In this document: piece by piece, positions 1 through 64,000 of the stretch | Position numbering within the stretch: the stretch's first letter is position 1 | Layout: each line of letters opens with the position of its first letter | Assembly: GCA_947581615.1 (NCBI GenBank) | Contig: CANPVD010000068.1 | Span: 2,240-66,239, forward strand | DNA length: 64,000 nt | Origin: Candidatus Humimonas hydrogenitrophica | Lineage (GTDB): Bacteria > Gemmatimonadota > Gemmatimonadetes > Palauibacterales > Palauibacteraceae | Direction of reading: 5' to 3' | The notes under the pieces: generated by a model | What the model was told of the DNA's origin: nothing | Database searches by the model: none | The model's input: only the letters and a program-made list of their open reading frames with translations | Translations under genes and position numbers: made by a program

Positions 1-1270
1 CCACCACGTCTCGCAGGAAGCTCTGTCGACCCGGGTTCTCCGCGTAATCGGGGCAGGGCGGGTCCCACTTCGAGGGCGGCACGTCGGCGGGGTACTTCGC
101 GAAGTACTCGAGGTCCTGCTTCACGTAGGACGAGTACCGGCCCGTGTTCAGGACCTCCATCACGTCGTGTATGGGGGCCTCGGGCCCGAGGGAGGCCAGG
201 TACTCGTGCATGTCGTACCGGAACCGGGGGCAGAAGTCGTCGTCCTTCAGGTGCGCCGCGAGGTGAGGGACCACGATCGAGTCGACGATCACGGCGCCTC
301 CCGCGCGCAGGTCCGAGACGGCCTGGTCGAACAGCCGCAGGACGGAGCTGTCGCTGTTCGAGGGATCGGCCAGGGCGCGCAGCACCCCGATGCGGGCGCC
401 CCGCAGTCCGTCCCGCTCGAGGAAGTTCATGTAGTCGGCCGCGACGTGGCCCCGGGAGGCCGCCGTGTAGGGATCGTCCGGATCGGGGCCCGCGATCACG
501 CTCAGGACGCGGGCCGCGTCGGTGACCGTCCTCGCCATCGGCCCGGCCACGTCCCGGTCGAAGGCCAGCGGGATGATCCCGGCCCGGCTCACCAGACCGA
601 GGGTGGAGCGGATGCCGAACAGGTCCAGGTGGGAGGACGGCCCGCGGATCGAGTTGCCCGTGTCGGTGCCCAATCCCACCAACCCGAAGCTGGCCGCCAC
701 CCCCGAGGCCGTCCCACCGCTCGATCCAGCCGGGACGCGGTCCAGCGCGTAGGCGTTGGCGGTGGTGTCGAACGAGGAGCTCACGGTCTGCTTCGCGCTG
801 AACGCCCACTCGGCCATGTTCGTCTTGGCCACCACCACCGCGCCCGCCCGTCGGATGCGGCGGACGACCGTGGCATCGGTGGGCGGGACGTTGTGGAGCA
901 GGGCGATCGAGCCACCCGTCGTGGGCAGGTCGTGGGTGTCGTAGTTGTCCTTGACCAGCATCGGCACGCAGAACAGCGCTCCGAGGGAGTCCCCTCGCGC
1001 CAGCCGCGCGTCCAGGGAGTCGGCCCGCTGGAGGGCCCGCGGATTGATCACGGTGATGGCGTGGAGCCCCGTGGAGTCGTCGTAGGCCCGGATGCGGCGC
1101 AGGTACGCCTCGACCACCATGTGGCAGGTCGTCCGTCCCGAGCGGAGGGCGGCCTCGACCGCCGGAATCGTCGCCTCGACCACGTCGACTGGAGCCGGGG
1201 CCGGTTTCCGCGAGCACGAGAGGACCAGGGGCACCAGGATCAGGGCGGCGAGCGGGCGGCGATGTCGCAC
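1..1270 (-). CDS. Amidase (amidase-signature family) with N-terminal lipoprotein-type signal; the gene's 3' end lies outside the window
   Basis: Not in the ORF track because it runs off the window edge. Hand translation of the minus strand from GTG at 1270-1268 gives MRHRRPLAALILVPLVLSCS.., then KDNYDT, GGSSGGTASGVAA (amidase-signature Ser-cisSer region) and GTDTGNSIRGPS. An in-frame stop (cta) lies at 1328-1330 upstream. The overlapping plus-strand ORF 167..1417 is low-complexity RGPA-rich antisense. Confidence 0.7.
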   Translation of the reverse strand, partial: MRHRRPLAALILVPLVLSCSRKPAPAPVDVVEATIPAVEAALRSGRTTCHMVVEAYLRRIRAYDDSTGLHAITVINPRALQRADSLDARLARGDSLGALFCVPMLVKDNYDTHDLPTTGGSIALLHNVPPTDATVVRRIRRAGAVVVAKTNMAEWAFSAKQTVSSSFDTTANAYALDRVPAGSSGGTASGVAASFGLVGLGTDTGNSIRGPSSHLDLFGIRSTLGLVSRAGIIPLAFDRDVAGPMARTVTDAARVLSVIAGPDPDDPYTAASRGHVAADYMNFLERDGLRGARIGVLRALADPSNSDSSVLRLFDQAVSDLRAGGAVIVDSIVVPHLAAHLKDDDFCPRFRYDMHEYLASLGPEAPIHDVMEVLNTGRYSSYVKQDLEYFAKYPADVPPSKWDPPCPDYAENPGRQSFLRDVV

Positions 1271-1413
1271 GAGCGGCTCCTCCGGGGCGGTGATCGTGTG
1301 CGGCCACGCGGGCCGTGTCCCGGGAAGCTAGGGCGACGTGACGCCGGCGGGAAGCGACCGGGCCACGCCCGGAACGGAGGTTTCGAGGCCCGCGGACGGG
1401 GCCGAGAGGGAGG

Positions 1414-8808: not shown

Positions 8809-8837
8809 TTGACCCTGCCGCGGCGCGGATCTAGCTT
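8809..8837 (+). promoter_or_regulatory. Candidate promoter TTGACC-N17-TAGCTT ending 6 nt before the asnS ATG (would make asnS leaderless)
   Basis: Read directly from the sequence. The -35 is near-consensus and the -10 is weak. No Shine-Dalgarno lies between the -10 and ATG 8844. Confidence 0.3.
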
Positions 8838-8843
8838 CGCGCC

Positions 8844-10163
8844 ATGTCAACCACGAGATCGACCATCGCGGAGCTCTCCGGGCATGCCGGAGAGGAAGTC
8901 GAGCTCCTCGCCTGGGTGCGGAACTTCCGCTCCAGCGGGAAGATCGCCTTCCTCATCCTGCGCGACGGGACGTCGCTTCCGGACGGTACGCCCGAGGTCC
9001 AGGCCGTGGTCTCCCGGGGCGACGTCGACGAGGAGAGCTGGGAGGCCGCGAACGCGGCCCACTACGAGGCCAGCGTGCGTGTGCGTGGGCAGGTGCGCGC
9101 GGACGCCCGCGCGCCGGGAGGCTACGAGCTCTCGGTGCGGGAGCTCCGGGTGCTGGGCCCGTCGGCGGACTATCCGATCCAGCCCAAGGAGCACGGGCCG
9201 GAGTTCCTGCACGACCACCGGCACCTGTGGCTCCGCCATCCGCGCCAGGTCGCCATCCTCCGGATCCGGGACGAGGTCGAGAAGGCCATCCGGGACTTCT
9301 TCTACGATCGGCACTTCACGCTGATCGACACGCCCATCCTCACCGGCTCGATCGGGGAGGAGGCCGGCGAGCTGTTCGAGACCGAGTACTTCGACCTCGG
9401 CACCGCCTACCTGGCCCAGACCGGACAGCTGTACGTGGAGGCCGCCGCGGCCGCGCTCGGCAACGTGTACTGCTTCGGTCCCACGTTCCGGGCGGAGAAG
9501 TCCAAGACCCGGCGGCACCTGACCGAGTTCTGGATGGTCGAGCCCGAGATGGCCTGGACGGACAGCGAGGGCAACATGGCCGTCCAGGAGGCGTTCGTCG
9601 CCTTCATCGTGGGCCGGGTCCTGGAGCGCGGCCGCGCCGAGCTCGATGTCCTGGAGCGGGACGTATCGAAGCTCGAGGCCGTGACGCCGCCCTTCGACCG
9701 CATGAGCTACACGGAGACCGTCGAGTACCTGCGGGGGAAGGGAAGCGCGATCACCTGGGGCGAGGACCTGGGCGGCGAGGACCAGACCCTCCTCACCGAG
9801 GACCGGCCCAAGCCCGTGTTCGTGTACGATTTCCCCAAGGAGGCCAAGGCCTTCTACATGAAGGAGAACCCCGAGGACCCGCGCACGGTGAAGTGCGACG
9901 ACCTGTACGCTCCGGAAGGCTTCGGGGAGGTCATCGGGGGCAGCCAGCGCGAGGACGACTTCGACCGCCTCCTGGCCAGGATCCGCGAGGAGGGCCTGCC
10001 CGAGGAGGCGTACGGCTGGTACCTGGACCTCCGCCGCTACGGCACCTTCCCGCACTCGGGCTTCGGCCTGGGCCTCGAGCGCACGGTGGGCTGGATGTGC
10101 GGCGTGCCCCACATCCGCGAGGTCATCCCCTTCCCGAGGACGATCAACCGCCTGACGCCGTAG
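8844..10163 (+). CDS. asnS: Asparagine--tRNA ligase
   Basis: 439 aa class II aaRS with N-terminal OB fold. FRAEKSKTRRHLTEFWMVEPEMAW is the AsnRS-specific motif 2 region. GGSQRED motif 3. Length fits AsnRS, not AspRS. Confidence 0.85.
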   Translation: MSTTRSTIAELSGHAGEEVELLAWVRNFRSSGKIAFLILRDGTSLPDGTPEVQAVVSRGDVDEESWEAANAAHYEASVRVRGQVRADARAPGGYELSVRELRVLGPSADYPIQPKEHGPEFLHDHRHLWLRHPRQVAILRIRDEVEKAIRDFFYDRHFTLIDTPILTGSIGEEAGELFETEYFDLGTAYLAQTGQLYVEAAAAALGNVYCFGPTFRAEKSKTRRHLTEFWMVEPEMAWTDSEGNMAVQEAFVAFIVGRVLERGRAELDVLERDVSKLEAVTPPFDRMSYTETVEYLRGKGSAITWGEDLGGEDQTLLTEDRPKPVFVYDFPKEAKAFYMKENPEDPRTVKCDDLYAPEGFGEVIGGSQREDDFDRLLARIREEGLPEEAYGWYLDLRRYGTFPHSGFGLGLERTVGWMCGVPHIREVIPFPRTINRLTP

Positions 10164-42601: not shown

Positions 42602-44503
42602 CTAGCGGGCGGGCCTCAGCTTCTCGAGGAGGGCCTCGCTGGGCTCGACGAACACCGTCTGCACCCGCTCGGGCACCACCACGCCCGGCGGCGCCTTGCG
42701 GGGGCTGCGCACGTACTTCCTCCGCGTCCAGTCGACCCCGACCGTGCCGCTGTGGCGCGCCTCGCTGTGCACCGCGGCGGCGACGGCCGCCTCGAGGAGG
42801 TCCCGCCGGGGCGGATTCGCATCCCTTCGGCCCCAGCGCAGGATGACGTGGGCCCCCGGCACCTGCCGGGCGTGGAGCCAGATGTCCTCGGTGTGGGAAT
42901 GGTGGAAGGTGAGCTCGTCGTTGTGCCGCGCCCCCCGGCCCACCCGGATCTCGAGTCCGCCCGAGGAGAGGTAGCGGCGGTAGGGCAGGCGGGAGGCGTC
43001 GGCCGCCCCGCGGCGCCCCGGCCGGCCGGGGCGGCCGCCGGCCAGCTCCCACAGCGCCTCCGACGGACTCGACCCGGCCAGGGTCTCCAGGCCGGCGCGC
43101 AGCTCCGCGAGACGCCCGCGGACCCGATCCAGGACGCCGGGAAGCCGCTCGGCCGCGCGCTCCCGCCGCGCGGCGAGCTCGTACAGCCGGTCCGCGTTCT
43201 CGGCGGCCGACAGCGCCGGGTCGAGCTCGATCTCGCGGGGGTCCCCAGCGAAGCCCTCCAGCGTGACCCGTGCCGCTCCGCGGGGAATCTCCGTCAGGCG
43301 CGCCAGGACGAGGTTGGCGTCCTCTCGGAGGAGGGCGGGATCGGGACCCTCCTCCAGCTCACGCTCTAAGGCGGCGGCCCGGCGCTCGGTGCGCTCCGCC
43401 GCGGCCCGAAGCGCGGCCTCGAGCTGCAGGGCCTCCCGGTCGGTCGTGGGGCCCGCCTCGTCCCGGGCTTCCGTCCCGTCTCCCTCCGCGGCGGGTCCGG
43501 GCCCGGAGGCGGCCGGGGGGGACCAGGGACCAGCGGCCGCGGCCCGGGCGAAGGCCGCGAGCAGCGAGTCGACCGGGACCGCGTCGGAGCGGCCCAGTCG
43601 GTCGGGGTAGGGCTGGGCGCCGGCCTCGCCCGGCAGGAGCCACGCGGCGGGCTTCCCGCGCGGGGCGGCCGCGCCCGCGACGGCGGCCAGGCCGAGGAGG
43701 CCGAGGTACCGCTCCCGGGCCGCCTCCAGCTCGCCTCGGGCCGCGTCGGGTTCACCTCCGGCCGCCTCCCCGAGGATCCAGACGGCGGTCAGGCCGCTCG
43801 TCCACGCGGCCTCGCGCAGAAGCGCGGCCGTGCGTCGCCCCGGCTCCTCCTCCGCGAGGAGGGCTCGCCACGCCTCCGGGTCGGGAGGCGCATCGCGCCA
43901 CCGCCGGGGACCGCCGGGGAAGGACGGCGGTCGGTAGGGACGGGCGCCGCGCAGGTCCCGGTCGCCGGCCTCGCGCGGCCACAGTGCCGCCCTGATCCGC
44001 CAGCGGCCCGACTCGTCCGTGCCGTTGGCCGCGGCTCTCCCGGCGGCTCTCGGAGCTCCCGGAGGGGGGGCGCCGGGGCCGGCCTCCTCCACCAGCAGGA
44101 GGTTCCACTGGTTGGTGAGAAGCTCGGCCACCAGGCGGCCACGGCGTCCGCCGCCCTCCAGGTCGAGGACGAGGACGCGCTCGTCGGGCGGAGACCACGC
44201 CCCCGTCAGTCGGCTCCCGTGCAGCTCCACCGCGGTCACCTCCGAGAGGGCCTCCCGGGGGTCCGCGCCCGACGAGCCCCTCCCGGCGAGCACGAGGGCC
44301 TCCAGCGCGCCCGGGTCGGCCTCCAGCAGGAACCCGGCCTCGGGATGGAGCAGGAAGAGCAGAGAGGGCCCCTGGTCGAGCCGCAGCTCGGCCGCGCGCA
44401 TCCCGCGGTGCAGGCGCAGCTCGCGCGCCCGACGGCCTGTCGTCCACTCGCCCAGCTCGCGGGCCAGGCAGCGGACGAGGACGGGGTCGTACTGCAGTGG
44501 CAC
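42602..44503 (-). CDS. NFACT-family RNA-binding protein (RqcH/FbpA-like, ribosome quality control)
   Basis: ORF 42602..44659. The preferred start is GTG 44503, preceded by GAGAGGAGG 8 nt upstream (MPLQYDPVLVRC). C-terminal NFACT-R/DUF814 block YRRYLSSGGLEIRVGRGARHNDELTFHHSHTEDIWLHARQVPGAHVIL. Confidence 0.65.
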   Translation of the reverse strand: MPLQYDPVLVRCLARELGEWTTGRRARELRLHRGMRAAELRLDQGPSLLFLLHPEAGFLLEADPGALEALVLAGRGSSGADPREALSEVTAVELHGSRLTGAWSPPDERVLVLDLEGGGRRGRLVAELLTNQWNLLLVEEAGPGAPPPGAPRAAGRAAANGTDESGRWRIRAALWPREAGDRDLRGARPYRPPSFPGGPRRWRDAPPDPEAWRALLAEEEPGRRTAALLREAAWTSGLTAVWILGEAAGGEPDAARGELEAARERYLGLLGLAAVAGAAAPRGKPAAWLLPGEAGAQPYPDRLGRSDAVPVDSLLAAFARAAAAGPWSPPAASGPGPAAEGDGTEARDEAGPTTDREALQLEAALRAAAERTERRAAALERELEEGPDPALLREDANLVLARLTEIPRGAARVTLEGFAGDPREIELDPALSAAENADRLYELAARRERAAERLPGVLDRVRGRLAELRAGLETLAGSSPSEALWELAGGRPGRPGRRGAADASRLPYRRYLSSGGLEIRVGRGARHNDELTFHHSHTEDIWLHARQVPGAHVILRWGRRDANPPRRDLLEAAVAAAVHSEARHSGTVGVDWTRRKYVRSPRKAPPGVVVPERVQTVFVEPSEALLEKLRPAR

Positions 44504-44524
44504 GGAACGCGCCTCCTCTCTCGG

Positions 44525-44553
44525 TTGGTACGCCGCCAGGGCGGGAATATATT
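44525..44553 (+). promoter_or_regulatory. Candidate promoter TTGGTA-N17-TATATT upstream of panB; the -10 lies within the perfect palindrome GAATATATTC
   Basis: Read directly from the sequence in the divergent rqcH-like/panB intergenic region. Confidence 0.3.
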
Positions 44554-44646
44554 CAGGCCGCCCGGTCGTGCGCGCACGCCGGGGGTCCGGGTGGAGTCGG
44601 TCGCCCGCGACCGTTCTGCCCGAACGGATAGCGGGGGAGGTCGAAG

Positions 44647-45480
44647 GTGACGAGCCCACACAGCCAGGAGAGCCGGCGCCGCGTCACCACACGCGAGCTG
44701 GTCGCCATGAAGGAGCGCGGGGAGCGCATCGCGATCCTCACCTGCTATGACCACCTGTTCGCCCGCCTGCTGGACGCCTCCGGTGTCGACGTCGTCCTGG
44801 TGGGGGACTCGCTGGGCCAGGTGATCCTCGGCTACGACTCGACGCTGCCGGTCACGCTGGAGGCGATGATCCACCACGCCTCGGCCGTGCGGCGCGGCGT
44901 CACCCACGCGCTCGTGGTGGTGGACCTGCCCTTCCTCTCCTACCAGGTGAGCGACGAGGAGGCCCTGCGCAGCGCCGGCCGGATCATGAAGGAGACGGGA
45001 GCCGAGGCCGTCAAGCTCGAGGGGGGCGACGAGGCCGCGGTCTCCCGGGTGCAGGCCCTCGTGCGGGCCGGCATCCCGGTCATGGGCCACCTGGGCCTCA
45101 CGCCCCAGTCCGTGCACAGCTTCGGTGGGTACGGGGTACGTGGACGGGAGCCGGAGGAGGCGACGCGCTTGCGCCGACAGGCGGCGGCGCTCGAGGAGGC
45201 CGGCTGCTTCGCCATCGTCCTCGAGCTCATGCCGACCGGGCTGGCGCGCGACGTGAGCCAGTCGCTGCGCATCCCGACGATCGGCATCGGAGCGGGACCG
45301 GACTGCGACGGCCAGGTGCTGGTGCTCCCGGACATGCTGGGGCTCAACGAGGGCTTCGAGCCCCGGTTCCTCCGCCGGTTCGGGGCGCTGGGCCCGGCCG
45401 TCCACGAAGCGGTGGACGCCTACGTGGAAGCGGTGCGCGAGCGGACGTATCCGGATGCTTCGGAGAGTTATGACGGATGA
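44647..45480 (+). CDS. panB: 3-methyl-2-oxobutanoate hydroxymethyltransferase
   Basis: GTG start with GGGGGAGG RBS. ILTCYD..VVLVGDSLG and GIGAGPDCDGQVLV motifs. Confidence 0.9.
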   Translation: MTSPHSQESRRRVTTRELVAMKERGERIAILTCYDHLFARLLDASGVDVVLVGDSLGQVILGYDSTLPVTLEAMIHHASAVRRGVTHALVVVDLPFLSYQVSDEEALRSAGRIMKETGAEAVKLEGGDEAAVSRVQALVRAGIPVMGHLGLTPQSVHSFGGYGVRGREPEEATRLRRQAAALEEAGCFAIVLELMPTGLARDVSQSLRIPTIGIGAGPDCDGQVLVLPDMLGLNEGFEPRFLRRFGALGPAVHEAVDAYVEAVRERTYPDASESYDG

Positions 45481-46438
45481 GGCGGCGCGGCCGATCGCCG
45501 TGGACAGGCCGGAACCCGGCCCGGAGCGGCCGGCGGCCGCTCCTCCCTCGCGCCCTCGCGTGATCCGGGACCCCGACGAAGCCAGAGACGCGGCCAGAAC
45601 CCTGCGACGCGAGCGCGGCAGCCTGGCCCTCGTGCCCACGATGGGCTTCCTGCACGAGGGGCACCTGAGCCTGCTGGACCGGGCCCGCGAGCAGGCGAGC
45701 GCCGTGGCGATCTCGATCTTCGTCAATCCGACCCAGTTCGGCCCGGACGAGGACTACGAGGCGTACCCGCGCGACCTGGAGCGTGACGCCCGCCTGGCCG
45801 CCGAGCGCGGGGCCGACTTCGTGTTCGCGCCCACCGCGGCGGCCATGTACCCGGGCTCTCCCACGATCACGGTGGATCCCGGGCGCCTGGCCGACCGCCT
45901 GTGCGGCCTGGGCCGCCCCGGTCACTTCCGCGGCGTGCTCACGGTCGTGCTCAAGCTGCTCCACGTGCTGGAGCCGGACGTGGCCGTGTTCGGCCGCAAG
46001 GACTTCCAGCAGTCGGTCCTCGTCCGCCGCATGATCCGGGAGCTGGACGTCCCGACGCGGATCGAGACGGCCCCGATCGTCCGGGAGCCGGGCGGTCTGG
46101 CCATGAGCTCGCGCAACACGTATCTGTCGCCCTCCGAGCGACGGGTGGCGCTGTCCCTGTCGCGGGGGCTGCGGCTCGTGCGCGAGCGCTTCGCCGCCGG
46201 CGAGCGGGACCCGTCCGCCCTCGTGTCGCTGGCCCGAGCCACCATGGAGACGGCCGGCGCCGTGGTCGAGTACGCCGAGGTGGTGGATCCGCGCGAGCTC
46301 GCGGGGGTGGAGGAAGCGTCCGCGGAGGCGGTGTGCGCGGTCGCCGCGCGGGTCGGATCGACCCGCCTCATCGACAACACGCCGCTCGGCGGGAACAGCA
46401 GCCTGGACGCCCCCGGGCGTCCGGGGGCACCCGAGTGA
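45470..46438 (+). CDS. panC: Pantoate--beta-alanine ligase
   Basis: ORF 45455..46438. ATG 45470 is preferred (GGAGAG upstream). LVPTMGFLHEGHLSL HIGH-type motif. SSRN. Confidence 0.85.
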   Translation: MTDEAARPIAVDRPEPGPERPAAAPPSRPRVIRDPDEARDAARTLRRERGSLALVPTMGFLHEGHLSLLDRAREQASAVAISIFVNPTQFGPDEDYEAYPRDLERDARLAAERGADFVFAPTAAAMYPGSPTITVDPGRLADRLCGLGRPGHFRGVLTVVLKLLHVLEPDVAVFGRKDFQQSVLVRRMIRELDVPTRIETAPIVREPGGLAMSSRNTYLSPSERRVALSLSRGLRLVRERFAAGERDPSALVSLARATMETAGAVVEYAEVVDPRELAGVEEASAEAVCAVAARVGSTRLIDNTPLGGNSSLDAPGRPGAPE

Positions 46439-46471
46439 CACGACGATCCGATCGGAGAGCCGATAGAGACC

Positions 46472-46537
46472 ATGCGACGTACCCTGTTCAAGTCGAAGAT
46501 CCATCGGGCCACGCTGACCGGGACGCCCGCCTCGTGA
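46472..46537 (+). pseudogene. panD: 21-codon N-terminal remnant of aspartate 1-decarboxylase (panD) terminating in TGA
   Basis: ATG..MRRTLFKSKIHRATLTGTPAS* matches the conserved PanD N-terminus (MxRTMLKSKIHRATVT..), but the pro-enzyme Gly-Ser cleavage region and the rest of the barrel are absent in all frames downstream. The stop overlaps the GTG of the next gene. Confidence 0.55.
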
Positions 46538-47127
46538 CCGTTCCCCGCGCCGCCGTCCCGCATCCGCTGGTCGCGGCCGCCGGGCGTGACGGCCGCCTCC
46601 CGGAGTGGGCGCGCTGCGGAGAGGCGAGGCGGGCCCACATCGAGCGCGTGGCCGGCCTCCTGGCGGCATGGGCCGAGAGGCTGGACCTCCCGGAAGCGGA
46701 GCGCGTGCGCTGGGCGGCGGCCGCGCGGCTGCACGACGCCCTGCGCGACGCGTCGCCCGCCGAGCTCCGCCAGGAAGCGGCGCCCGACTGGCCCGCCGCC
46801 CTCCTGCACGGCCCCGCCTGCGCGGCGCGCCTGCGGGCGGAGGGCGTCGAGGACGAGGATCTCTTGCGGGCCGTGGCTTACCACACGGTCGGGCACCCGG
46901 AGTTCGGACGGCTCGGCGAGTATCTCTACCTGGCCGACTTCCTGGAGCCGGGACGCTCCTACCTACCGGACGTGCGCGAGCGGCTCCGGGCCATCCTGCC
47001 CACGGAGCGACTGGAGGCCCTCCTGTCGGTCGCCGGCCTCAGGCTGGCCCACCGGCTCGAGGTCCGCGGCGCGATCCGCCCCGAGACGGTGGCCCTGTGG
47101 AACCGGCTGGTGGAGGAGGCCGCGTGA
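46534..47127 (+). CDS. HD-domain phosphohydrolase (YqeK-like)
   Basis: In the frame of ORF 45901..47127 from GTG 46534. H..RV..LA..WA..L..AA.LHD HD motif. About 197 aa. Confidence 0.5.
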   Translation: MTVPRAAVPHPLVAAAGRDGRLPEWARCGEARRAHIERVAGLLAAWAERLDLPEAERVRWAAAARLHDALRDASPAELRQEAAPDWPAALLHGPACAARLRAEGVEDEDLLRAVAYHTVGHPEFGRLGEYLYLADFLEPGRSYLPDVRERLRAILPTERLEALLSVAGLRLAHRLEVRGAIRPETVALWNRLVEEAA

Positions 47128-47639
47128 AGGGGCGCCTGGGGACGGTCGTCACGGTGGTCGTGCTCCTCGGCGTGGGCTTCCTGCTCGGCTCCTTCTGGCT
47201 CCAGTGGCGAGGAACCCGGCTCCGGCAGCCCGGCTCGGAGGTGGAGGGCACGCCGGTCACCGTTCCGGAGGGCTTCGCTTCCCGGGCCCGGGTCGAGGTC
47301 CTCAACGGCTCGGGGGAGCCGGGCGCGGCCGGGCGCGCCGCGAGCCGCCTCCGCGCCATGGGGTTCGATGTCGTCTACTTCGGCAACGCGTCCAGCTTCG
47401 GACACGCTCACACGCGGGTCCTGGCGCGATCGACCGACCGCGGCGCGGCTCGCCGGGTGGCGGACTCGATCGGCCTGGACAGCGCCATCTCCCGCCCGGA
47501 CACCAGCCTCTACCTGGACGCCACCGTCATCCTGGGGGACGACTGGCACGACCTGCTCGAGGTGCGCTCCCGGAGCCAGAAGCCATCGGAGCGACCGGCG
47601 AGCCTGCTCGACCGCATCCTGCACGCCGTCCATCGGTGA
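47124..47639 (+). CDS. LytR_C (LytR/CpsA/Psr C-terminal) domain membrane protein
   Basis: GTG 47124 with [11 protein letters not shown], overlapping the upstream TGA. N-terminal TM helix. RVEVLNGSGEPGAAGRAASRLRAMGFDV LytR_C pattern. Confidence 0.55.
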   Translation: MKGRLGTVVTVVVLLGVGFLLGSFWLQWRGTRLRQPGSEVEGTPVTVPEGFASRARVEVLNGSGEPGAAGRAASRLRAMGFDVVYFGNASSFGHAHTRVLARSTDRGAARRVADSIGLDSAISRPDTSLYLDATVILGDDWHDLLEVRSRSQKPSERPASLLDRILHAVHR

Positions 47640-47692
47640 GGCCGGCTCGCGCGCCCGGAGCCGCCGCGCGTCGACGGCCCCCGCCAGGGTCG

Positions 47693-48775
47693 TCAGGACG
47701 CCGGGTCGCCGTGCTCCAGTCGGAGCTGGCCGCAGGCGGCCGCGATGTCCCGGCCCCGGGGCTCACGCACCGCGGCGCTCACCCCGCGGCGGTGCAGGGC
47801 CCGGGCGAAGGCCTCCACGCGCTCCGGGGGGCTGGATCGCCAGGGCCGGTCGGGGATCGGGTTCCACGGAATCAAGTTGATGAAGCACATGAGGTCGGAT
47901 GTGATATCAGCAAGAGAATCAGCGAGTTCTGTGCTGTCGTTGATCCCCTCGATGAGGGTGTACTCGAAGGTCACGCGACGGCCCTTCCGGTCCAGGTACT
48001 CCCGCACGGCGGCCAGGAGCTCGGGCAGGGGGTAGCGTCGCTCGATCGGCATGAGCGCGGCCCGGAGCTCGGAGAGGGGCGCGTGCAGCGAGACGGCCAG
48101 GCCGAAGGGCTCCGGCCGACGGGCCAGCTCGAGGATCCCGGGCACGAGGCCCACCGTCGACACGGTGATGCGGCGAGCCCCCACGCCGAAGCCCTCGTGC
48201 AGGACCTCGAGCGCCGCGAACAGGGGCTCGGGGTTGGCCAGGGGCTCGCCCATGCCCATGAAGACCAGGTTGGTGATGGGCCGGCCCATCTCCTCGCGCG
48301 CGAAGCGGAGCGAGTCGCGGTACTGGGCCACGATCTCCGCCGCCGTGAGGTGGCGCCGGAAGCCGAAGGACCCGGTGGCGCAGAACCGGCAACCGAGCGC
48401 GCAGCCGACCTGCGACGACAGGCACAGCGTGAGTCGGTCCCCGGCGGGGATGAGGACGGACTCGACCTGCTCGCCGTCCTCGAGTCGCCACAGGTGCTTG
48501 ACCGTGCCGTCGGACGAGCGCGCGGTCCACGCCGCTTCGAGCGGCGTGAGCCGGAACGCCGCGCCGAGCTCGGCGCGCAGCTCCGTGGGAAGCGTCGTCG
48601 CTTCGTCGAACGAGCGCGCCGCCTGCCCGTACACCCAGTGCTCGACCTGGTCGGTGCGGTAGGCGGGCTCTCCCCGCGCCTCGAGCCAGCTGGTCACGGA
48701 GCGGCGGAGCTCCTGCGGCGCGAGGCCGAGCAGGGCCGCGGGTCCGGTCGTTTCCGGGAGGGTCTTCTGGCTCAT
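47693..48775 (-). CDS. rlmN: 23S rRNA (adenine2503-C2)-methyltransferase
   Basis: ORF 47693..49045 trimmed to ATG 48775 (MSQKTLPETTG). Radical-SAM CALGCRFCATG and C-terminal Cys. Confidence 0.85.
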   Translation of the reverse strand: MSQKTLPETTGPAALLGLAPQELRRSVTSWLEARGEPAYRTDQVEHWVYGQAARSFDEATTLPTELRAELGAAFRLTPLEAAWTARSSDGTVKHLWRLEDGEQVESVLIPAGDRLTLCLSSQVGCALGCRFCATGSFGFRRHLTAAEIVAQYRDSLRFAREEMGRPITNLVFMGMGEPLANPEPLFAALEVLHEGFGVGARRITVSTVGLVPGILELARRPEPFGLAVSLHAPLSELRAALMPIERRYPLPELLAAVREYLDRKGRRVTFEYTLIEGINDSTELADSLADITSDLMCFINLIPWNPIPDRPWRSSPPERVEAFARALHRRGVSAAVREPRGRDIAAACGQLRLEHGDPAS

Positions 48776-48805
48776 GGCCCGTCGATGAAGGTAAGCTGCG
48801 CTCGC

Positions 48806-48868
48806 TTGCTGCGGCCGATGGCCGCCGGTATACTCCGGAGCCGTAGTACGCGGAACCGGCCGGCTCCG
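48806..48868 (+). promoter_or_regulatory. Candidate promoter TTGCTG-N17-TATACT followed at once by an 8-bp-stem hairpin (CGGAGCCG..CGGCTCCG) and a U-rich tail in the vanZ/aspS leader
   Basis: Read directly from the sequence. Possible leader attenuator, or a shared regulatory structure of the divergent rlmN/vanZ region. Confidence 0.3.
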
Positions 48869-48929
48869 TTCCTCGTTCCCCGCCCCCGCTTCCGGAGCTC
48901 CCCGGGAGGCCACCCTTCGTGAGTCCTTG

Positions 48930-49310
48930 ATGCGCAACGTGCGTCCGTGGCGTCTGGTCGCCGCCTGGGTGATCGTCATCCTGATGGCCACGACGGTTCC
49001 GTTTCCGTCGGGACTCATCGAGACGGGCCCGTTCCCCTTCGACAAGGTGGTCCACTTCGGGCTCTACGCGGTCCTGGGCTGGACGGTGCACCGCGCCGTG
49101 AGGGCGGGGGGCGGACGGCGACCGCTCTCGATCCTGGCGGCGTGGGCCGTGGGGATCGCCTTCGGCGCGCTGGACGAGCTGCACCAGCACCTGGTGCCGG
49201 GCCGGGACCCGTCGGTGGCGGACTGGGCCGCGGACGCGGCGGGCTACACGGCCGCCTTCCTGGCCTCGTCCGTGCTCGCCAGGAAGAGCTCGAGGAAGGA
49301 GCAGCGCTGA
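48930..49310 (+). CDS. VanZ family membrane protein
   Basis: ORF 48927..49310 (TTG then ATG). FDKVVHFGLYAVLGW VanZ signature. Four TM helices. Confidence 0.6.
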   Translation: MRNVRPWRLVAAWVIVILMATTVPFPSGLIETGPFPFDKVVHFGLYAVLGWTVHRAVRAGGGRRPLSILAAWAVGIAFGALDELHQHLVPGRDPSVADWAADAAGYTAAFLASSVLARKSSRKEQR

Positions 49311-49330
49311 CGGTGGAGTCAGGAGGGCAG

Positions 49331-51166
49331 GTGGAGAGACCGAGCGAGGGCAGGGAAGCGACATCGTACCGGGATGCGCGCTGCGCGACGGCCGGCCGAT
49401 CCTGGGTCGGCCGGCCGGTGCGGCTGGCCGGCTGGGTGCACCGGCGGCGCGACCTGGGCGGGCTGCTGTTCGTGGACCTGCGGGACCGGAGCGGCCTCGT
49501 GCAGCTGGTGTTCGGCGAGGACTGGACCGAGCCGGACGCGCTCGAGCTGGCGCACGGTCTGGGGCCCGAGGACGTGGTGCGCGTCGAGGGAGAGGTGGAG
49601 CTGCGCCCCGAGGAGGCGCTGAACCCCGACATGGCCACCGGGGAGATCGAGGTGCACGTCCGCCGTTTGGAACGCCTGTCGGCGGCCGACTCGCTCCCGA
49701 TCCTGGTGGCCGTGCCTCCCGAGGAGAGCCTGCCCTCCGAGGAGCTCCGGCTCCGGCATCGGTACCTGGACCTGCGCCGCCCCGGGATGGTGCGGCACTT
49801 CGAGGTTCGCCACCGGGCGGTGGCCGGTGCCCGCGCCGCGCTGGACGCTGAGGGCTTCCTGGAGGTGGAGACGCCGCTCCTCACGCGGCGCACGCCCGAG
49901 GGGGCGCGCGACTACGTGGTCCCCAGCCGGCTGCACCACGGGGAGTTCTACGCCCTTCCGCAGTCCCCGCAGCTCTACAAGCAGCTGCTCATGGTGTCGG
50001 GCTTCGACCGCTACTACCAGGTGGCGCGCTGTCTCAGGGACGAAGACCTCCGGGCCGACCGGCAGCCGGAGTTCAGCCAGATCGACGTCGAGATGTCCTT
50101 CGTCGGGGTGGACGACGTGCTCGGCGTCGGCGAGCGCATGCTGGCGGGCATGTGGCGCCAGGGCGTGGGCCTGGAGCTCGAGCTCCCCTTCCCGCGCATG
50201 ACCCACGATGAGGCCATGGAGTCGTACGGGACCGACAAGCCGGACCTGAGGATCCCTTGGCGCCTGGAGGACTTCACGGAGGCGCTCGTCGGCACCGGCT
50301 TCCGCGTCGTCGATGGCGCGGTCGAGGCCGGCGGACGCGTGCGTGGCCTGGTCGCGAAGGGCGGGGCGCGACTCTCCCGCAGCGAGGTCGACCGGCTGGC
50401 GGCGCGCGCCACCGAGCACGGAGCCGGCGGGCTCCTGTGGCTCAAGTCGAGCGAGGACGGCTGGTCGGGGCCCATGGCCCGCTTCATCGACGACGAGCGA
50501 GGCGGGCGGCTGGCCGCGGAGCACGGCGTGGAGGTCGGCGACGTCGTCCTTCTCGTGGTCGGCGGCGACGCCGAGACATCCCGCCCCCTGGACGCGGTGC
50601 GGCGCGCCGCCGGGGAGGCGCTGGACGCGGTGGACCGGAACGCGCATCGATGGCTGTGGGTCACGGACTTTCCCCTGTTCGAGCGCGACCCGGAGACGGG
50701 CCGGCCCGCGGCGGCGCATCACCCCTTCACCCTCCCCGCGACCGACGATCCGGCGCGGATCCGCGAGGACCCCTTCAGCGTGAAGGCCAGCGCCTACGAC
50801 GTGGTGTACAACGGGGCGGAGTTGTGCAGCGGAAGCATCCGTTGTCATGATCCGGTGCTCCAGAGAGCGATCCTGGCTACCCTGGGCCTCGGTTCCGAGG
50901 AGATCGAGGAACGCTTCGGCTTCCTCCTCGAGGCCTTCCGCTACGGCGTTCCGCCGCACGGGGGGTACGCGCTGGGGGTGGATCGCACCGTGATGCTCAT
51001 GCTGGGAGCCGACTCGATCCGGGAAGTCATCGCTTTTCCCAAGACCACCGCGGCACGCGGGCTCATGGAGGGCGCGCCCTCCCCGCTGGCCCCCGGGGAG
51101 CTCGAGGAGTTCGGGCTGCGCTTCGCGGAGGGGCCGGGCGCTCCGCGAGGAGCGTCGCCGTCGTGA
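49331..51166 (+). CDS. aspS: Aspartate--tRNA ligase
   Basis: In the frame of ORF 48947..51166. GTG 49331 with AGGAGG 4 nt upstream. [32 protein letters not shown] motif 1. FRDED motif 2 region. GAD insertion domain. GGYALGVDR motif 3. Confidence 0.9.
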
Positions 51167-60802: not shown

Positions 60803-63800
60803 TCATTGTGGCCAGGAACAAGTCGTCCAACTGGAATCGATAGGGGTATAAACGTAGAGCAAACCGGAGATGATTATGTGAGTCGTGTGCCGAGTCTTTG
60901 TCGTGCATGTATCTCGAAGGCTTGGAGCGCCGCCGCCCCAATGCGTATGAAAGTCTCCAGAGGCGCCTGCGTAGAAGGGCACGTGCACAGTGTCTCCTCC
61001 CGGTCTGCCGGAAACGGTTACGTGCAATGGATCGCTCCACGGAGCCCCGTACCAGCCGCCAAATTCCTGCCTGTTTAGCCACGACCGCCTGTAGAGATTA
61101 CCTGCCTGCTCGAGGAAGCTCGCGTTGAATTGACAATTGAACGTGTCGGCCCGAGCAGCCGCGGCTGCTCCACCCCCCGGAGGTCCAAACGCGGCAAAGC
61201 CGGAATTGGGGCCCGCACCGTCACCGTCGCCCCCGAGGCCGGGCGCTGAGGAGGCGCCATAGCCACCGGCGGCACCCGCACCGCCGCCACCGCCCTGGAC
61301 GAGGACCTTGAGCTCCGTCGCGTCGTCGCACCACGGATCGGGAGTCCAGGTGAAGTAACAGTCGAGGCCAGAGGGATCCGTCCCGTTCGTGGGACTGTTC
61401 CCCACGTAGGCGTAAGGGTTGATCCCGGCCGAGAGCCCCAGCGGATCCTCGCTGAGGAAGCGTCCGAGCTCGGGGTCGTAGGAGCGGGCGCCCATGGCGT
61501 AGAGGCCCTCGTGCCAGTCGAGCATCGAGCCGGCCCAGCGCAGCCAGTTGGACACGGTGGTCGAGCCGTGCTGGGCATTCCCCCAGGGATCGTAGCGGTA
61601 GTCGTTGGCCACGCCCGAGTCGCCGAACAGCCCGAGGACGGAGCCGAGGTCGTCGGTGGCCAGGTAGTAGGTCTCCTCGTCGGCACGCAGGCTGTGGGGC
61701 AGGGCGCCGCCGGGGAAGTAGGCGTAGGTGGCCTTGAGCGCGGTGGCCCCGGCGTAGACGGCGAACAGGGAGCTTCCGTCCCACAGGAAGTGGAGGACGT
61801 AGCCGGTCTTGCCGCGCTCGACGCGGCGGCCGAAGCCGTCGTACTCGTAGCGCCAGACGGTGTCGCCGTCGGCGAGGCTGTCGAGCCGGCCCGTGGGGCT
61901 CCAGTAGAAGCTCTCGTTCACTCCGCTTCCCGACTTGGAGGTGAGCCGGCCGGCGGCGTCCCAGGTGAGGCTGTAGCCGGCGAAGGAGCTCGGCCGGTCG
62001 GCCGTGTCGATCACGGCGCCGTGGTCGGTGCGATTCCCCACCGCGTCGTAGGCGTAGAGCGCCGAGTCGGCGACCGTGTAGCCCGAGTTGAAGCTGCAGT
62101 CGTTGGGATCGATCGAGCCCGGCGTGCAGGTCACCCCCGCGTTGGCCACGCGGTCCACGTACCCGGTGAGCCGGCTCTCACTGTCGTACGTATAGGCCCG
62201 GCTCGTGTCCTCGCTCGCCCCCCGGTAGACCGCGGTCCGCCGGCCGAGCGAGTCCTCGCTGAAGGCCTGCCCGAACTTCGCCTCGAGGACGGAGCTGCTC
62301 CACGAGAGGGACCCCGTCCGGTGGGAGGAGGCCACGCCGCGCCACAGCGTGTCGCCGGTCGGGTAGATCACTTTCGTGGTCTGGCGGTCCGCGTCGTAGG
62401 CGAAGGTCGTCGCCTGCCCCCCGGCGTCGATGAGGGAGTCCAGCCGGCCCTGGTCGTCGTACCGGTAGCCCACCGAATCGGTCCACGGGGTCGTCGCGGC
62501 GATCTCGGCCCGGCGGCCCTCCCCGTCGTACCGGCTGTGGAGGACGTAGCGGGTAGAGCCCCGGCGGGTGATCTGGTCCACCACGCGGCCCGCGGCGTCG
62601 TAGGTCACCGTGTCCGTGCTCGCGGCGTTGGAGGCGGCGACGAACAGGCCGTCGGGGTCCGTCGTGAACGTGGTGGTGTCGCCCCCCTCGGCGCGCCACG
62701 CCAGTTGGCCCAGGGCGTCGTAGCCGAAGCCCACGGTCTGACCCACCCGGTTCGTCCAGCTCGTGATCCGTCCGTTCGCATCGTAGGCGTACGCGTCGGC
62801 GTGGCCGGCGGGATCGGTGCGCCCGGTGATCCAGCCCAGGGCGTTCCGGTCGAACGAATAGGTCTGTCCGAGGGCGTCGGTCACTCCCGTGACGTAGAGC
62901 GAGTCGTACGACAGGCGCGTGGTGTCCCCCAGGGGGCCGACCGTGAGGGTCATCCGGTTCAACGTGTCGTAGGCCGTGGTGGCGGTGTGACCGTCGGCGT
63001 CCGTGACCTGGACGGTCCGGCCGTAATCGTCGTAGGCGTAGCGCGTGGTCCTCGCCTCGCTCGACAGCGTCGAGTCCACGCCCGTCTTCACCGAGTCGGT
63101 GTTCATGGAGCCGGCCGGAGCGTAGAACACCCTCAGCTCGTGGTGCTCCGGGTCGATCCGGGTGAGGAGGCGCCCCAGGGAGTCGTAGGTGAAGCGCGTG
63201 GCCGCGGCCGCCGAGCTTCCGACGCGCACGCTGTCGACCCTGCCGTCCGTGTAGTCGAGCCACCGCGGCGTCACGTCGCCGTAGAGGCGCGTGGGCAGGT
63301 GGGGAGCGAGGGAGTCCTCGTAGGCCAGGTGGACGGTCCGGTCGCTGGCGCGATCCGTCTCCTGCGTGAGGTCCGGCCCGTCCCACGTGTAGTCGACGGT
63401 GTCGCCGTTCGGGAGGATCGCCTGCGTGAGCCGGGAGTCGCCGTTCCGAACGAAGTGCGTGGCGGATCCCAGCGCCGGATAGATCCAGGTCGGCGCCAGG
63501 AACCTGTCGACCTGGAAGGAGGTCGTGTCTCCCTCCGGGTCCACGATGGCCGGTCGCGCGGTCCCGGACGCTACCGAGGTCGCGGGACTCGAGGACGTGC
63601 CCTCTCCGGAGTCGCTCACCATGTGGGCCACCTGCCAGGCCAGGGAGGCGTACCGGACGACCGGGCGCATGGACGCGCTGTCGGCGACCACCTCGGGCAG
63701 GGTGTCGGCGGCCAGCCGGCCGGCGAAATCGTAGGCGAAGCCCCAGTCGTTCCCGCCGCGATCGGTGCGCGTGAGCATCCGGTGGTCGGCGTCGTAGGTC

Positions 63801-64000
63801 GCCCGCAGGGCATCGACGCCCTCGGGGTACTCGATGTGATTGAGGTCCCCCGCCACGCTGATCGTGACCTTGACGTGCCGGCCCTCCGGATCCTCGATCC
63901 ACGCCAGCTTCCCGTCGTACCCGTACCCGATCGTGAACGACTGGCCCGTCGGGTCCGTGACCGTGTGCAGGCCGTGCGTGTTGTACGCGTACGTGGTGGC
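60803..64000 (-). CDS. RHS/YD-repeat polymorphic toxin (5' end outside window) with uncharacterised C-terminal toxin domain
   Basis: ORF 60803..63856 continues in frame to the window edge (hand translation of 63857-64000 gives ..YAYNTHGLHTVTDPTGQSFTIGYGYDGKLAWIEDPEGRHVKVTISVAGDLNH). More than 25 YD repeats (YDxxGR). Canonical core end DPLGLSAGINPYAYVGNSPTNGTDPSGL (DPxGL). An about 190-aa variable C-terminus follows. Confidence 0.85.
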   Translation of the reverse strand, partial: ATTYAYNTHGLHTVTDPTGQSFTIGYGYDGKLAWIEDPEGRHVKVTISVAGDLNHIEYPEGVDALRATYDADHRMLTRTDRGGNDWGFAYDFAGRLAADTLPEVVADSASMRPVVRYASLAWQVAHMVSDSGEGTSSSPATSVASGTARPAIVDPEGDTTSFQVDRFLAPTWIYPALGSATHFVRNGDSRLTQAILPNGDTVDYTWDGPDLTQETDRASDRTVHLAYEDSLAPHLPTRLYGDVTPRWLDYTDGRVDSVRVGSSAAAATRFTYDSLGRLLTRIDPEHHELRVFYAPAGSMNTDSVKTGVDSTLSSEARTTRYAYDDYGRTVQVTDADGHTATTAYDTLNRMTLTVGPLGDTTRLSYDSLYVTGVTDALGQTYSFDRNALGWITGRTDPAGHADAYAYDANGRITSWTNRVGQTVGFGYDALGQLAWRAEGGDTTTFTTDPDGLFVAASNAASTDTVTYDAAGRVVDQITRRGSTRYVLHSRYDGEGRRAEIAATTPWTDSVGYRYDDQGRLDSLIDAGGQATTFAYDADRQTTKVIYPTGDTLWRGVASSHRTGSLSWSSSVLEAKFGQAFSEDSLGRRTAVYRGASEDTSRAYTYDSESRLTGYVDRVANAGVTCTPGSIDPNDCSFNSGYTVADSALYAYDAVGNRTDHGAVIDTADRPSSFAGYSLTWDAAGRLTSKSGSGVNESFYWSPTGRLDSLADGDTVWRYEYDGFGRRVERGKTGYVLHFLWDGSSLFAVYAGATALKATYAYFPGGALPHSLRADEETYYLATDDLGSVLGLFGDSGVANDYRYDPWGNAQHGSTTVSNWLRWAGSMLDWHEGLYAMGARSYDPELGRFLSEDPLGLSAGINPYAYVGNSPTNGTDPSGLDCYFTWTPDPWCDDATELKVLVQGGGGGAGAAGGYGASSAPGLGGDGDGAGPNSGFAAFGPPGGGAAAAARADTFNCQFNASFLEQAGNLYRRSWLNRQEFGGWYGAPWSDPLHVTVSGRPGGDTVHVPFYAGASGDFHTHWGGGAPSLRDTCTTKTRHTTHIIISGLLYVYTPIDSSWTTCSWPQ

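Follow-up and report, generated by a model that had tools for sequence, protein, structure and literature searches.

The pan locus

The DNA examined here is a stretch of 64,000 nucleotides with a G+C content of 72.9%, called the window in what follows. About two-thirds of the way along it lie the genes of vitamin B5 synthesis, panB and panC, followed by a very short open reading frame and then by genes for an HD-domain protein and a LytR_C-domain protein. Two related contigs, both of which carry a full-length PanD protein (P0040), serve as references: L169 (ENA ERZ27259738 k141_209541), used as the intact reference, and L170 (JGI 3300039631). The features of the locus are the following.

44525..44553, + strand: weakly supported promoter candidate, TTGGTA-17-TATATT, 9/12 matches, upstream of panB
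44647..45480, + strand: panB, ketopantoate hydroxymethyltransferase, intact, 277 aa (PF02548, E 2e-113, profile positions 1-258 of 259)
45470..46438, + strand: panC, pantoate-beta-alanine ligase, intact, 322 aa (PF02569, E 1.5e-95; start as in public gene calls)
46439..46471, + strand: spacer between panC and panD, which carries panD's own ribosome-binding region GGAGAG; 32 of its 33 bases equal the L169 spacer
46472..46537, + strand: panD remnant; codons 1-18 are native panD, and the Gly24-Ser25 site and the remaining fold are missing
46518..46525, + strand: deletion junction, with the break between 46524 and 46525 inside an imperfect microhomology (alignment with L169 and L170)
46525..46533, + strand: remainder of the panD-HD spacer, the last 9 of 19 bases; the GGAGG site of the HD gene is mostly lost and now reads GGGAC
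46534..47127, + strand: HD-domain hydrolase, distantly YqeK-like, 197 aa (Pfam HD, E 5.6e-9; PDB 2o08, E 2.9e-14)
47124..47639, + strand: LytR_C-domain protein, 171 aa (PF13399, E 1.9e-16); starts at a GTG that overlaps the stop of the HD gene (GTGA)

The identities of the two pan genes are secure, PanB scoring 333 bits against an NCBIfam cutoff of 207 and PanC 302 bits against 213. The panC frame is open from an ATG at 45455, and public gene callers use the later start given above. The sequence at 44525..44553 is the sole sigma-70-like match between 44400 and 47800, a region in which 0.0 such matches are expected from shuffled sequences, and it is possibly the promoter of the operon. From panB to the LytR_C gene, the sequence gave no match to an intrinsic terminator or an internal promoter.

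The HD protein clears the Pfam HD cutoff (36.7 bits against 22) and falls short of the TIGR00488 equivalog cutoff for YqeK (48.5 against 70.15 bits). It resembles the YqeK Ap4A hydrolases (TIGR00488; PDB 2o08, 8wmy and 8jja) in its domain and approximate size and finds its best relatives among them, but it differs in scoring below their cutoff and in lying next to panBC and the LytR_C gene rather than nadD. Its L169 counterpart has the same start and is 92% identical (182 of 197 residues), and a metagenome scan with the HD protein gave no match closer than 55% identity. We know of no link between this gene and pantothenate. The LytR_C gene that follows it is conserved in relatives.

Elsewhere in the window are two genes for class II aminoacyl-tRNA synthetases of the Asp/Asn/Lys type. 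The one at 49313-51166 (+) has a GAD domain and is an AspRS; the one at 8835-10160 (+) is without GAD and may be an AsnRS or a non-discriminating enzyme of the AspRS type. At 60806-64000 (-) lies the gene of a large protein with RHS repeats (Pfam RHS_repeat, E 1e-43), which runs past the right end.

The short ORF is the 5' end of panD

panD is the usual gene for beta-alanine in vitamin B5 synthesis. The ORF at 46472-46537 (+) has 21 codons and translates as MRRTLFKSKIHRATLTGTPAS before its stop. It aligns with positions 1-18 of the 115-position Pfam Asp_decarbox profile (E 0.0076; 16.6 bits against a cutoff of 25), and is 75% identical to residues 1-16 of Mycobacterium tuberculosis PanD. An HMM made from the PanD sequences of related loci found one match among the 984 six-frame segments of the window, and this was the stub (E 1.2e-6, HMM positions 1-18). 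Its first 18 residues are all identical to those of five full-length PanD proteins of the clade (P0037, P0040, P0050, P0054 and P0064), gathered by searching a protein collection with the PanD of locus L002. Where relatives continue ..TGTDLEYEGSI.., the stub reads ..LTGTPAS and terminates at residue 21.

The DNA comparison is closer still. The first 53 bases of the stub match the 5' end of the intact L169 panD, at the equivalent position, in 52 cases, and the single difference is synonymous; with flanking genes 92-97% identical, descent from a panD adjacent to panC is established. The sequence-only reading of this DNA had described a 21-codon panD stub behind panB and panC, and the profile match, the HMM and the 52 of 53 bases all bear this description out. 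It had also claimed that the rest of PanD is not encoded downstream, and this holds, as tblastn and the custom HMM (984 six-frame segments) matched no second PanD-like sequence in the 64 kb window.

What remains has the marks of a pseudogene remnant and not of an enzyme. The stub shares with the aspartate decarboxylases (PanD/ADC, PF02261) the homology to residues 1-18, which include Lys9 and His11-Arg12, and it occupies the usual panB-panC-panD position. It differs in keeping only 18 of about 125 residues, with no alpha-chain and no full-length PF02261 domain (about 115 residues, above the gathering threshold). The pyruvoyl group arises solely by self-cleavage of the continuous Gly24-Ser25 bond (PMC3398536). 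Judged from its sequence, the stub cannot be an aspartate decarboxylase or make beta-alanine, because this self-processing site is absent together with about 85% of the fold.

Two other origins for such an ORF were weighed, a short frame that resembles PanD by chance and a separate beta-chain of a split enzyme, the latter being suggested by a length of 21 aa close to that of the 24-residue PanD beta-chain. A chance ORF would hardly reproduce, in 52 of 53 bases and in the equivalent place, the start of a real panD. The split enzyme was rejected: according to the custom HMM, an alpha-chain is encoded nowhere in the window, and the continuous Gly24-Ser25 bond needed for processing is missing from the stub. 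We regard the probability of either as negligible.

Anatomy of the deletion

L169 and L170 agree with the window in gene order and gene lengths, and their DNA is 92-97% identical to it over 44100-50514. The JGI contig has a run of N (a scaffolding gap) at about 2710-2720 inside its panC, which for this reason is called shorter (304 aa) and gives no Pfam hit.

At the place of the stub, L169 holds a complete panD of 125 codons. Global alignment of the two sequences contains one 335-base gap, the window being without L169 4006-4340; the same gap is seen against L170, and it is the sole structural difference between the window and L169 at the locus. The missing segment begins at the last base of panD codon 18 and runs through codon 125 and the TGA stop (L169 4328-4330). 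It takes in as well 10 bases (CGCCCCGGAG) at the start of the 19-base spacer between panD and the HD gene, including most of the HD ribosome-binding site. With the break marked by a slash, the intact left end reads ACCGGGAC/CGACC (that is, CCGGGAC/CGACC) and the intact right end CCCCGGAG/GCCCGG. The microhomology, CCGGGAC against CCGGAG, is imperfect and 5-6 bases long, and a 7-base CGCTGAC repeat lies nearby.

The same alignment accounts for the last codons of the stub. Past codon 18 it reads CCC GCC TCG from the leftover spacer, so residues 19-21 (PAS) come from DNA that was formerly non-coding, and its TGA is supplied by the first codons of the HD gene in another frame. This TGA already exists in L169, where it lies out of frame within GTG ACC (GTGACC). 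The stop of the stub is therefore not the old panD stop, and because the TGA already lay out of frame in GTGACC, the overlap of the stop with the HD start arose as a side effect of the deletion and is no ancestral arrangement.

The alignment demonstrates that the 21-codon ORF is the remainder of panD after one deletion of 335 bases: an intact orthologue exists in a close relative, and the missing part is one defined gap, as in a deletion pseudogene. The ancestral layout was panB-panC-panD-HD-LytR_C, as retained in a relative of about 95% identity, and the single 335-base deletion cut panD to 18 codons. Replication slippage or illegitimate recombination would fit the short flanking matches.

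Two further interpretations of the junction were rejected. A first mapping against loci L002 and L004, whose PanC proteins are 64-67% identical to that of the window, left the right edge of the deletion unresolved. An internal deletion that preserved both the reading frame and the original stop of panD had apparent support in an NTGAC junction shared by L002, L006 and L081 and in three full-length PanD proteins that end in ...EPAS. L169 shows that the true stop was deleted, 335 is not a multiple of 3, and the match of the PAS of the stub to these termini is coincidental. Recombination to the left of the junction was considered from a lower identity on that side (88.8% versus 95.5%); sliding windows trace the drop to a hypervariable part of the NFACT gene. 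Across panB and panC, identity to L169 is 87-95% per 250-base window and mostly 92-95%. The stretch of the NFACT gene at 43000-44100 (-) is 72-86% identical to its L169 counterpart with many indels, between flanks of 92-97%; it looks like a hypervariable middle region rich in Ala, Gly, Pro and Arg.

The junction in independent assemblies

Proteins exactly equal to those of the window occur in public contigs, PanB on 16 and the HD protein on seven. Contigs from five sources (ENA ERZ27257083; Logan SRR21285585, SRR21285564 and SRR5210470; NCBI MAG GCA_030689505.1) were compared with the window and are 99.99-100% identical to it over 7-12 kb. The interval 46430-46600, which contains the junction, is base-for-base identical in all five of these independent assemblies.

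A collapse or mis-join at 46.5 kb in a genome that in truth carries a full panD is a general possibility for metagenome assemblies, and nothing further speaks for it here. The identical junction was reached from different runs by different assemblers, and the repeat at the break, at 5-7 bases, is far shorter than any assembly k-mer. Given these two facts, an assembly error is highly improbable and for practical purposes excluded. The deletion is a genuine allele and is widespread in the population concerned.

Translation of the HD gene

The TGA of the stub (46535-46537) overlaps the GTG of the HD gene (46534-46536) in TCGTGACC. Public gene calls begin the 197-aa HD protein at GTG 46534 in the window-identical contigs L161 and L166, and in L169 the protein is called from the homologous GTG, with the first 11 residues identical. 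An HD start on the stop of the stub, as the sequence-only reading had it, is thus confirmed.

By taking part of the spacer, the deletion would have destroyed most of the ribosome-binding site of the HD gene. L169 has GGAGG 8 bases before the GTG and L171 has GAGAGG, as against GGGAC in the window. Predicted Shine-Dalgarno pairing, computed with the canonical anti-SD tail assumed, weakens from -9.5 kcal/mol in L169 to -4.0 kcal/mol in the window for the HD gene and is unchanged at -6.6 kcal/mol in both for the panD ribosome-binding region. Ribosomes that start at the retained panD start region would translate the mini-ORF and reinitiate at the HD GTG.

Overlapping stop and start codons (NTGA or TGATG) are a known form of translational coupling in bacterial operons. 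Among 76 related loci, 37 have a start in the HD frame that overlaps the upstream stop as NTGA, and a further 27 have one within 15 bases. The window shows this arrangement in the TGA of the stub on the HD GTG (GTGA); it occurs also between panC and the HD gene in many relatives and between the HD and LytR_C genes. The case differs from known coupling in that the upstream partner is a 21-codon relic of a deletion, the downstream ribosome-binding site has been lost, and the coupling is predicted from sequence. The HD gene is probably translated by termination and reinitiation from the stub, which would compensate for the lost site; we take this view because the HD ribosome-binding site is lost, that of panD is unchanged, no terminator or internal promoter intervenes, and the NTGA overlap is common in relatives.

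Another start is available. An in-frame GTG at 46435-46437 overlaps the panC stop (GTGA) and would give a product of 230 aa, its 33 additional residues being translated through the stub region in a different frame. After the deletion this codon could serve as the HD start instead of GTG 46534.

The start region of panD may also have been co-opted, serving as a coupling mini-ORF and so rescuing HD translation. The stronger form of this idea, that selection keeps the mini-ORF as a requirement for translation of the HD and LytR_C genes and that it is no neutral relic, is possible but doubtful. The deletion removed the HD ribosome-binding site and retained the site and ATG of panD, the end of the mini-ORF falls exactly on the HD start, and coupling of the HD gene to an upstream gene is common in the phylum. 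Against this, all sampled carriers are 99.99-100% identical, which is too little time for selection to become visible; older lineages without panD have no stub and join the HD gene straight to panC; and the one other remnant found, in L001, is decayed and frameshifted. Since about one-third of random deletions would bring a stop close by, the arrangement may just be recent and neutral.

Loss of panD in related genomes

A scan of species-representative genomes based on PanC yielded 80 loci, mostly of Gemmatimonadota. Across about 90 Gemmatimonadota loci the layout is conserved: an NFACT gene on the opposite strand, then panB, panC, panD where present, the HD gene and the LytR_C gene, and finally RlmN on the opposite strand. 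A full panD between panC and the HD gene is found in a minority (L002, L003, L004, L006, L008, L009, L018, L025 and L081), and in most Gemmatimonadota loci the HD gene follows panC directly, with no panD at this locus. The layout is conserved throughout the phylum with or without panD, so the HD gene belongs natively in the downstream position and is not a replacement. The sequence-only reading had allowed for either replacement or deletion of panD and had named panBC-panD synteny in relatives as a check. That comparison places the HD gene as an ancestral neighbour, with panD in a minority; the deletion stands, as the 335-base gap against L169, and the replacement falls.

In a bootstrapped neighbour-joining tree of concatenated PanB, PanC and HD proteins, the window groups with the panD-containing loci L002 and L004 (bootstrap 90) inside a clade of nine taxa (bootstrap 100). 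Within this clade panD is present in L002, L003, L004, L006 and L081 and missing in the window, L005, L001 and L007. Since the four taxa without panD sit at three or more separate positions in the tree, its topology implies that panD was lost at least three times independently. In L005 and L007 the HD gene is joined directly to the panC stop, and in all other loci without panD the custom HMM detected no PanD remnant. The window is the youngest stage of a recurrent loss.

The panC-HD interval of L001 (5400-5540) holds an independent, decayed and frameshifted panD remnant with a ATGCGGAGG start. It is visible at the DNA level as a weak 85-base match, 69% identical, to the 3' end of the L004 panD (E 2e-4).

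In a second Gemmatimonadota clade an additional ORF, about 270-300 aa long, separates the HD gene from panD or, failing that, from panC (L008 6200-7100, L009 6140-7030, L018 5560-6440, L025 6180-7090 and L028 5820-6780). Its product begins with a nucleotidyltransferase region resembling that of GlmU and carries hexapeptide repeats at the C-terminus (..GVVLEGxTxIGxETVxGPGCRIxDSxVGSGVELKGWNY..). In L028 this ORF is present and panD is absent.

Supply of beta-alanine

Comparison of the window with L169 gives dN/dS values of 0.18 for panB and 0.27 for panC, with neighbouring genes at 0.13-0.35; these values average both lineages, and a very recent deletion might leave no signal of relaxation yet. 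On these figures panB and panC have no sign of relaxed selection, which favours a pathway still in use over the inactivated pathway that the sequence-only reading had offered beside an alternative beta-alanine source. With panB and panC inferred to be in use and the stub inactive, beta-alanine would be made by another route or supplied from outside.

Genes of known alternative routes were not recognised within the 64 kb window. The only amidohydrolase seen in it is an amidase-signature enzyme at 2-1327 (-) (PF01425, E 7e-76), cut by the left end, which we take not to be of the known beta-alanine synthase type.

Were the genome to carry another intact panD elsewhere, or some functional equivalent that was redundant with it already, the loss at this locus would be metabolically silent and would signify nothing out of the ordinary. 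The analysis covers 64 kb of that genome, panB and panC look selected, and most Gemmatimonadota loci have no panD beside panC, so the phylum must often obtain beta-alanine in some other way. Conversely, the window has no further PanD-like sequence, the genes of the known alternative routes were not recognised there, and in relatives panD, wherever seen, sits at this locus. We consider a silent loss of this kind unlikely.

The gene pattern has parallels. Among the Rhizobiales, 81% of genomes are without ADC and about 92% keep PanB and PanC, and Rhizobium etli obtains beta-alanine through AmaB, the beta-alanine synthase of uracil degradation (PMC7142369). An Acinetobacter baylyi panD deletion mutant grows by means of Dat/Ddc and aldehyde dehydrogenases (PMC9213253). 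These cases share with the window the retention of the pantoate branch and the ligase and the absence of ADC, here at the locus. They differ in that the alternative route is named there and none was recognised in the window, and the Rhizobiales differ further in that the loss described here is seen while a remnant still persists and is dated by comparison with a sister lineage about 95% identical.

For our account as a whole, that the stub is the remnant of a 335-base deletion, that it is probably coupled to the HD gene and that panB and panC would still be used, we estimate a probability of about 0.9. To our knowledge, no alternative beta-alanine route has been identified for Gemmatimonadota. 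That these bacteria obtain beta-alanine by an unrecognised route, whether a new enzyme or obligate cross-feeding, is a speculative and rather improbable proposal. If true, it would account for the recurrent loss of panD in the face of continued selection on panB and panC. The lineage of the window and its panD-containing sister, about 95% identical, would in that case be a natural knock-out pair, and comparing the two could reveal the route.

Significance

This is ordinary gene loss, mapped to the base in an uncultured Gemmatimonadota lineage, and no new kind of system. The current understanding of the pathway is unchanged by it. Its interest is modest and lies in the recurrence of the loss, in a sister lineage that still has the gene and in the consequence for HD translation, where a single deletion can damage a downstream ribosome-binding site and also create a replacement coupling arrangement.

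The locus provides a base-resolved and independently replicated case in which a member of a poorly studied phylum has very recently lost the beta-alanine step in vitamin B5/CoA synthesis, and the deletion lineage and its intact sister are a matched pair for comparative genomics. Recurrent loss of panD in Gemmatimonadota, with panB and panC kept, points to cross-feeding or to an alternative source of beta-alanine.
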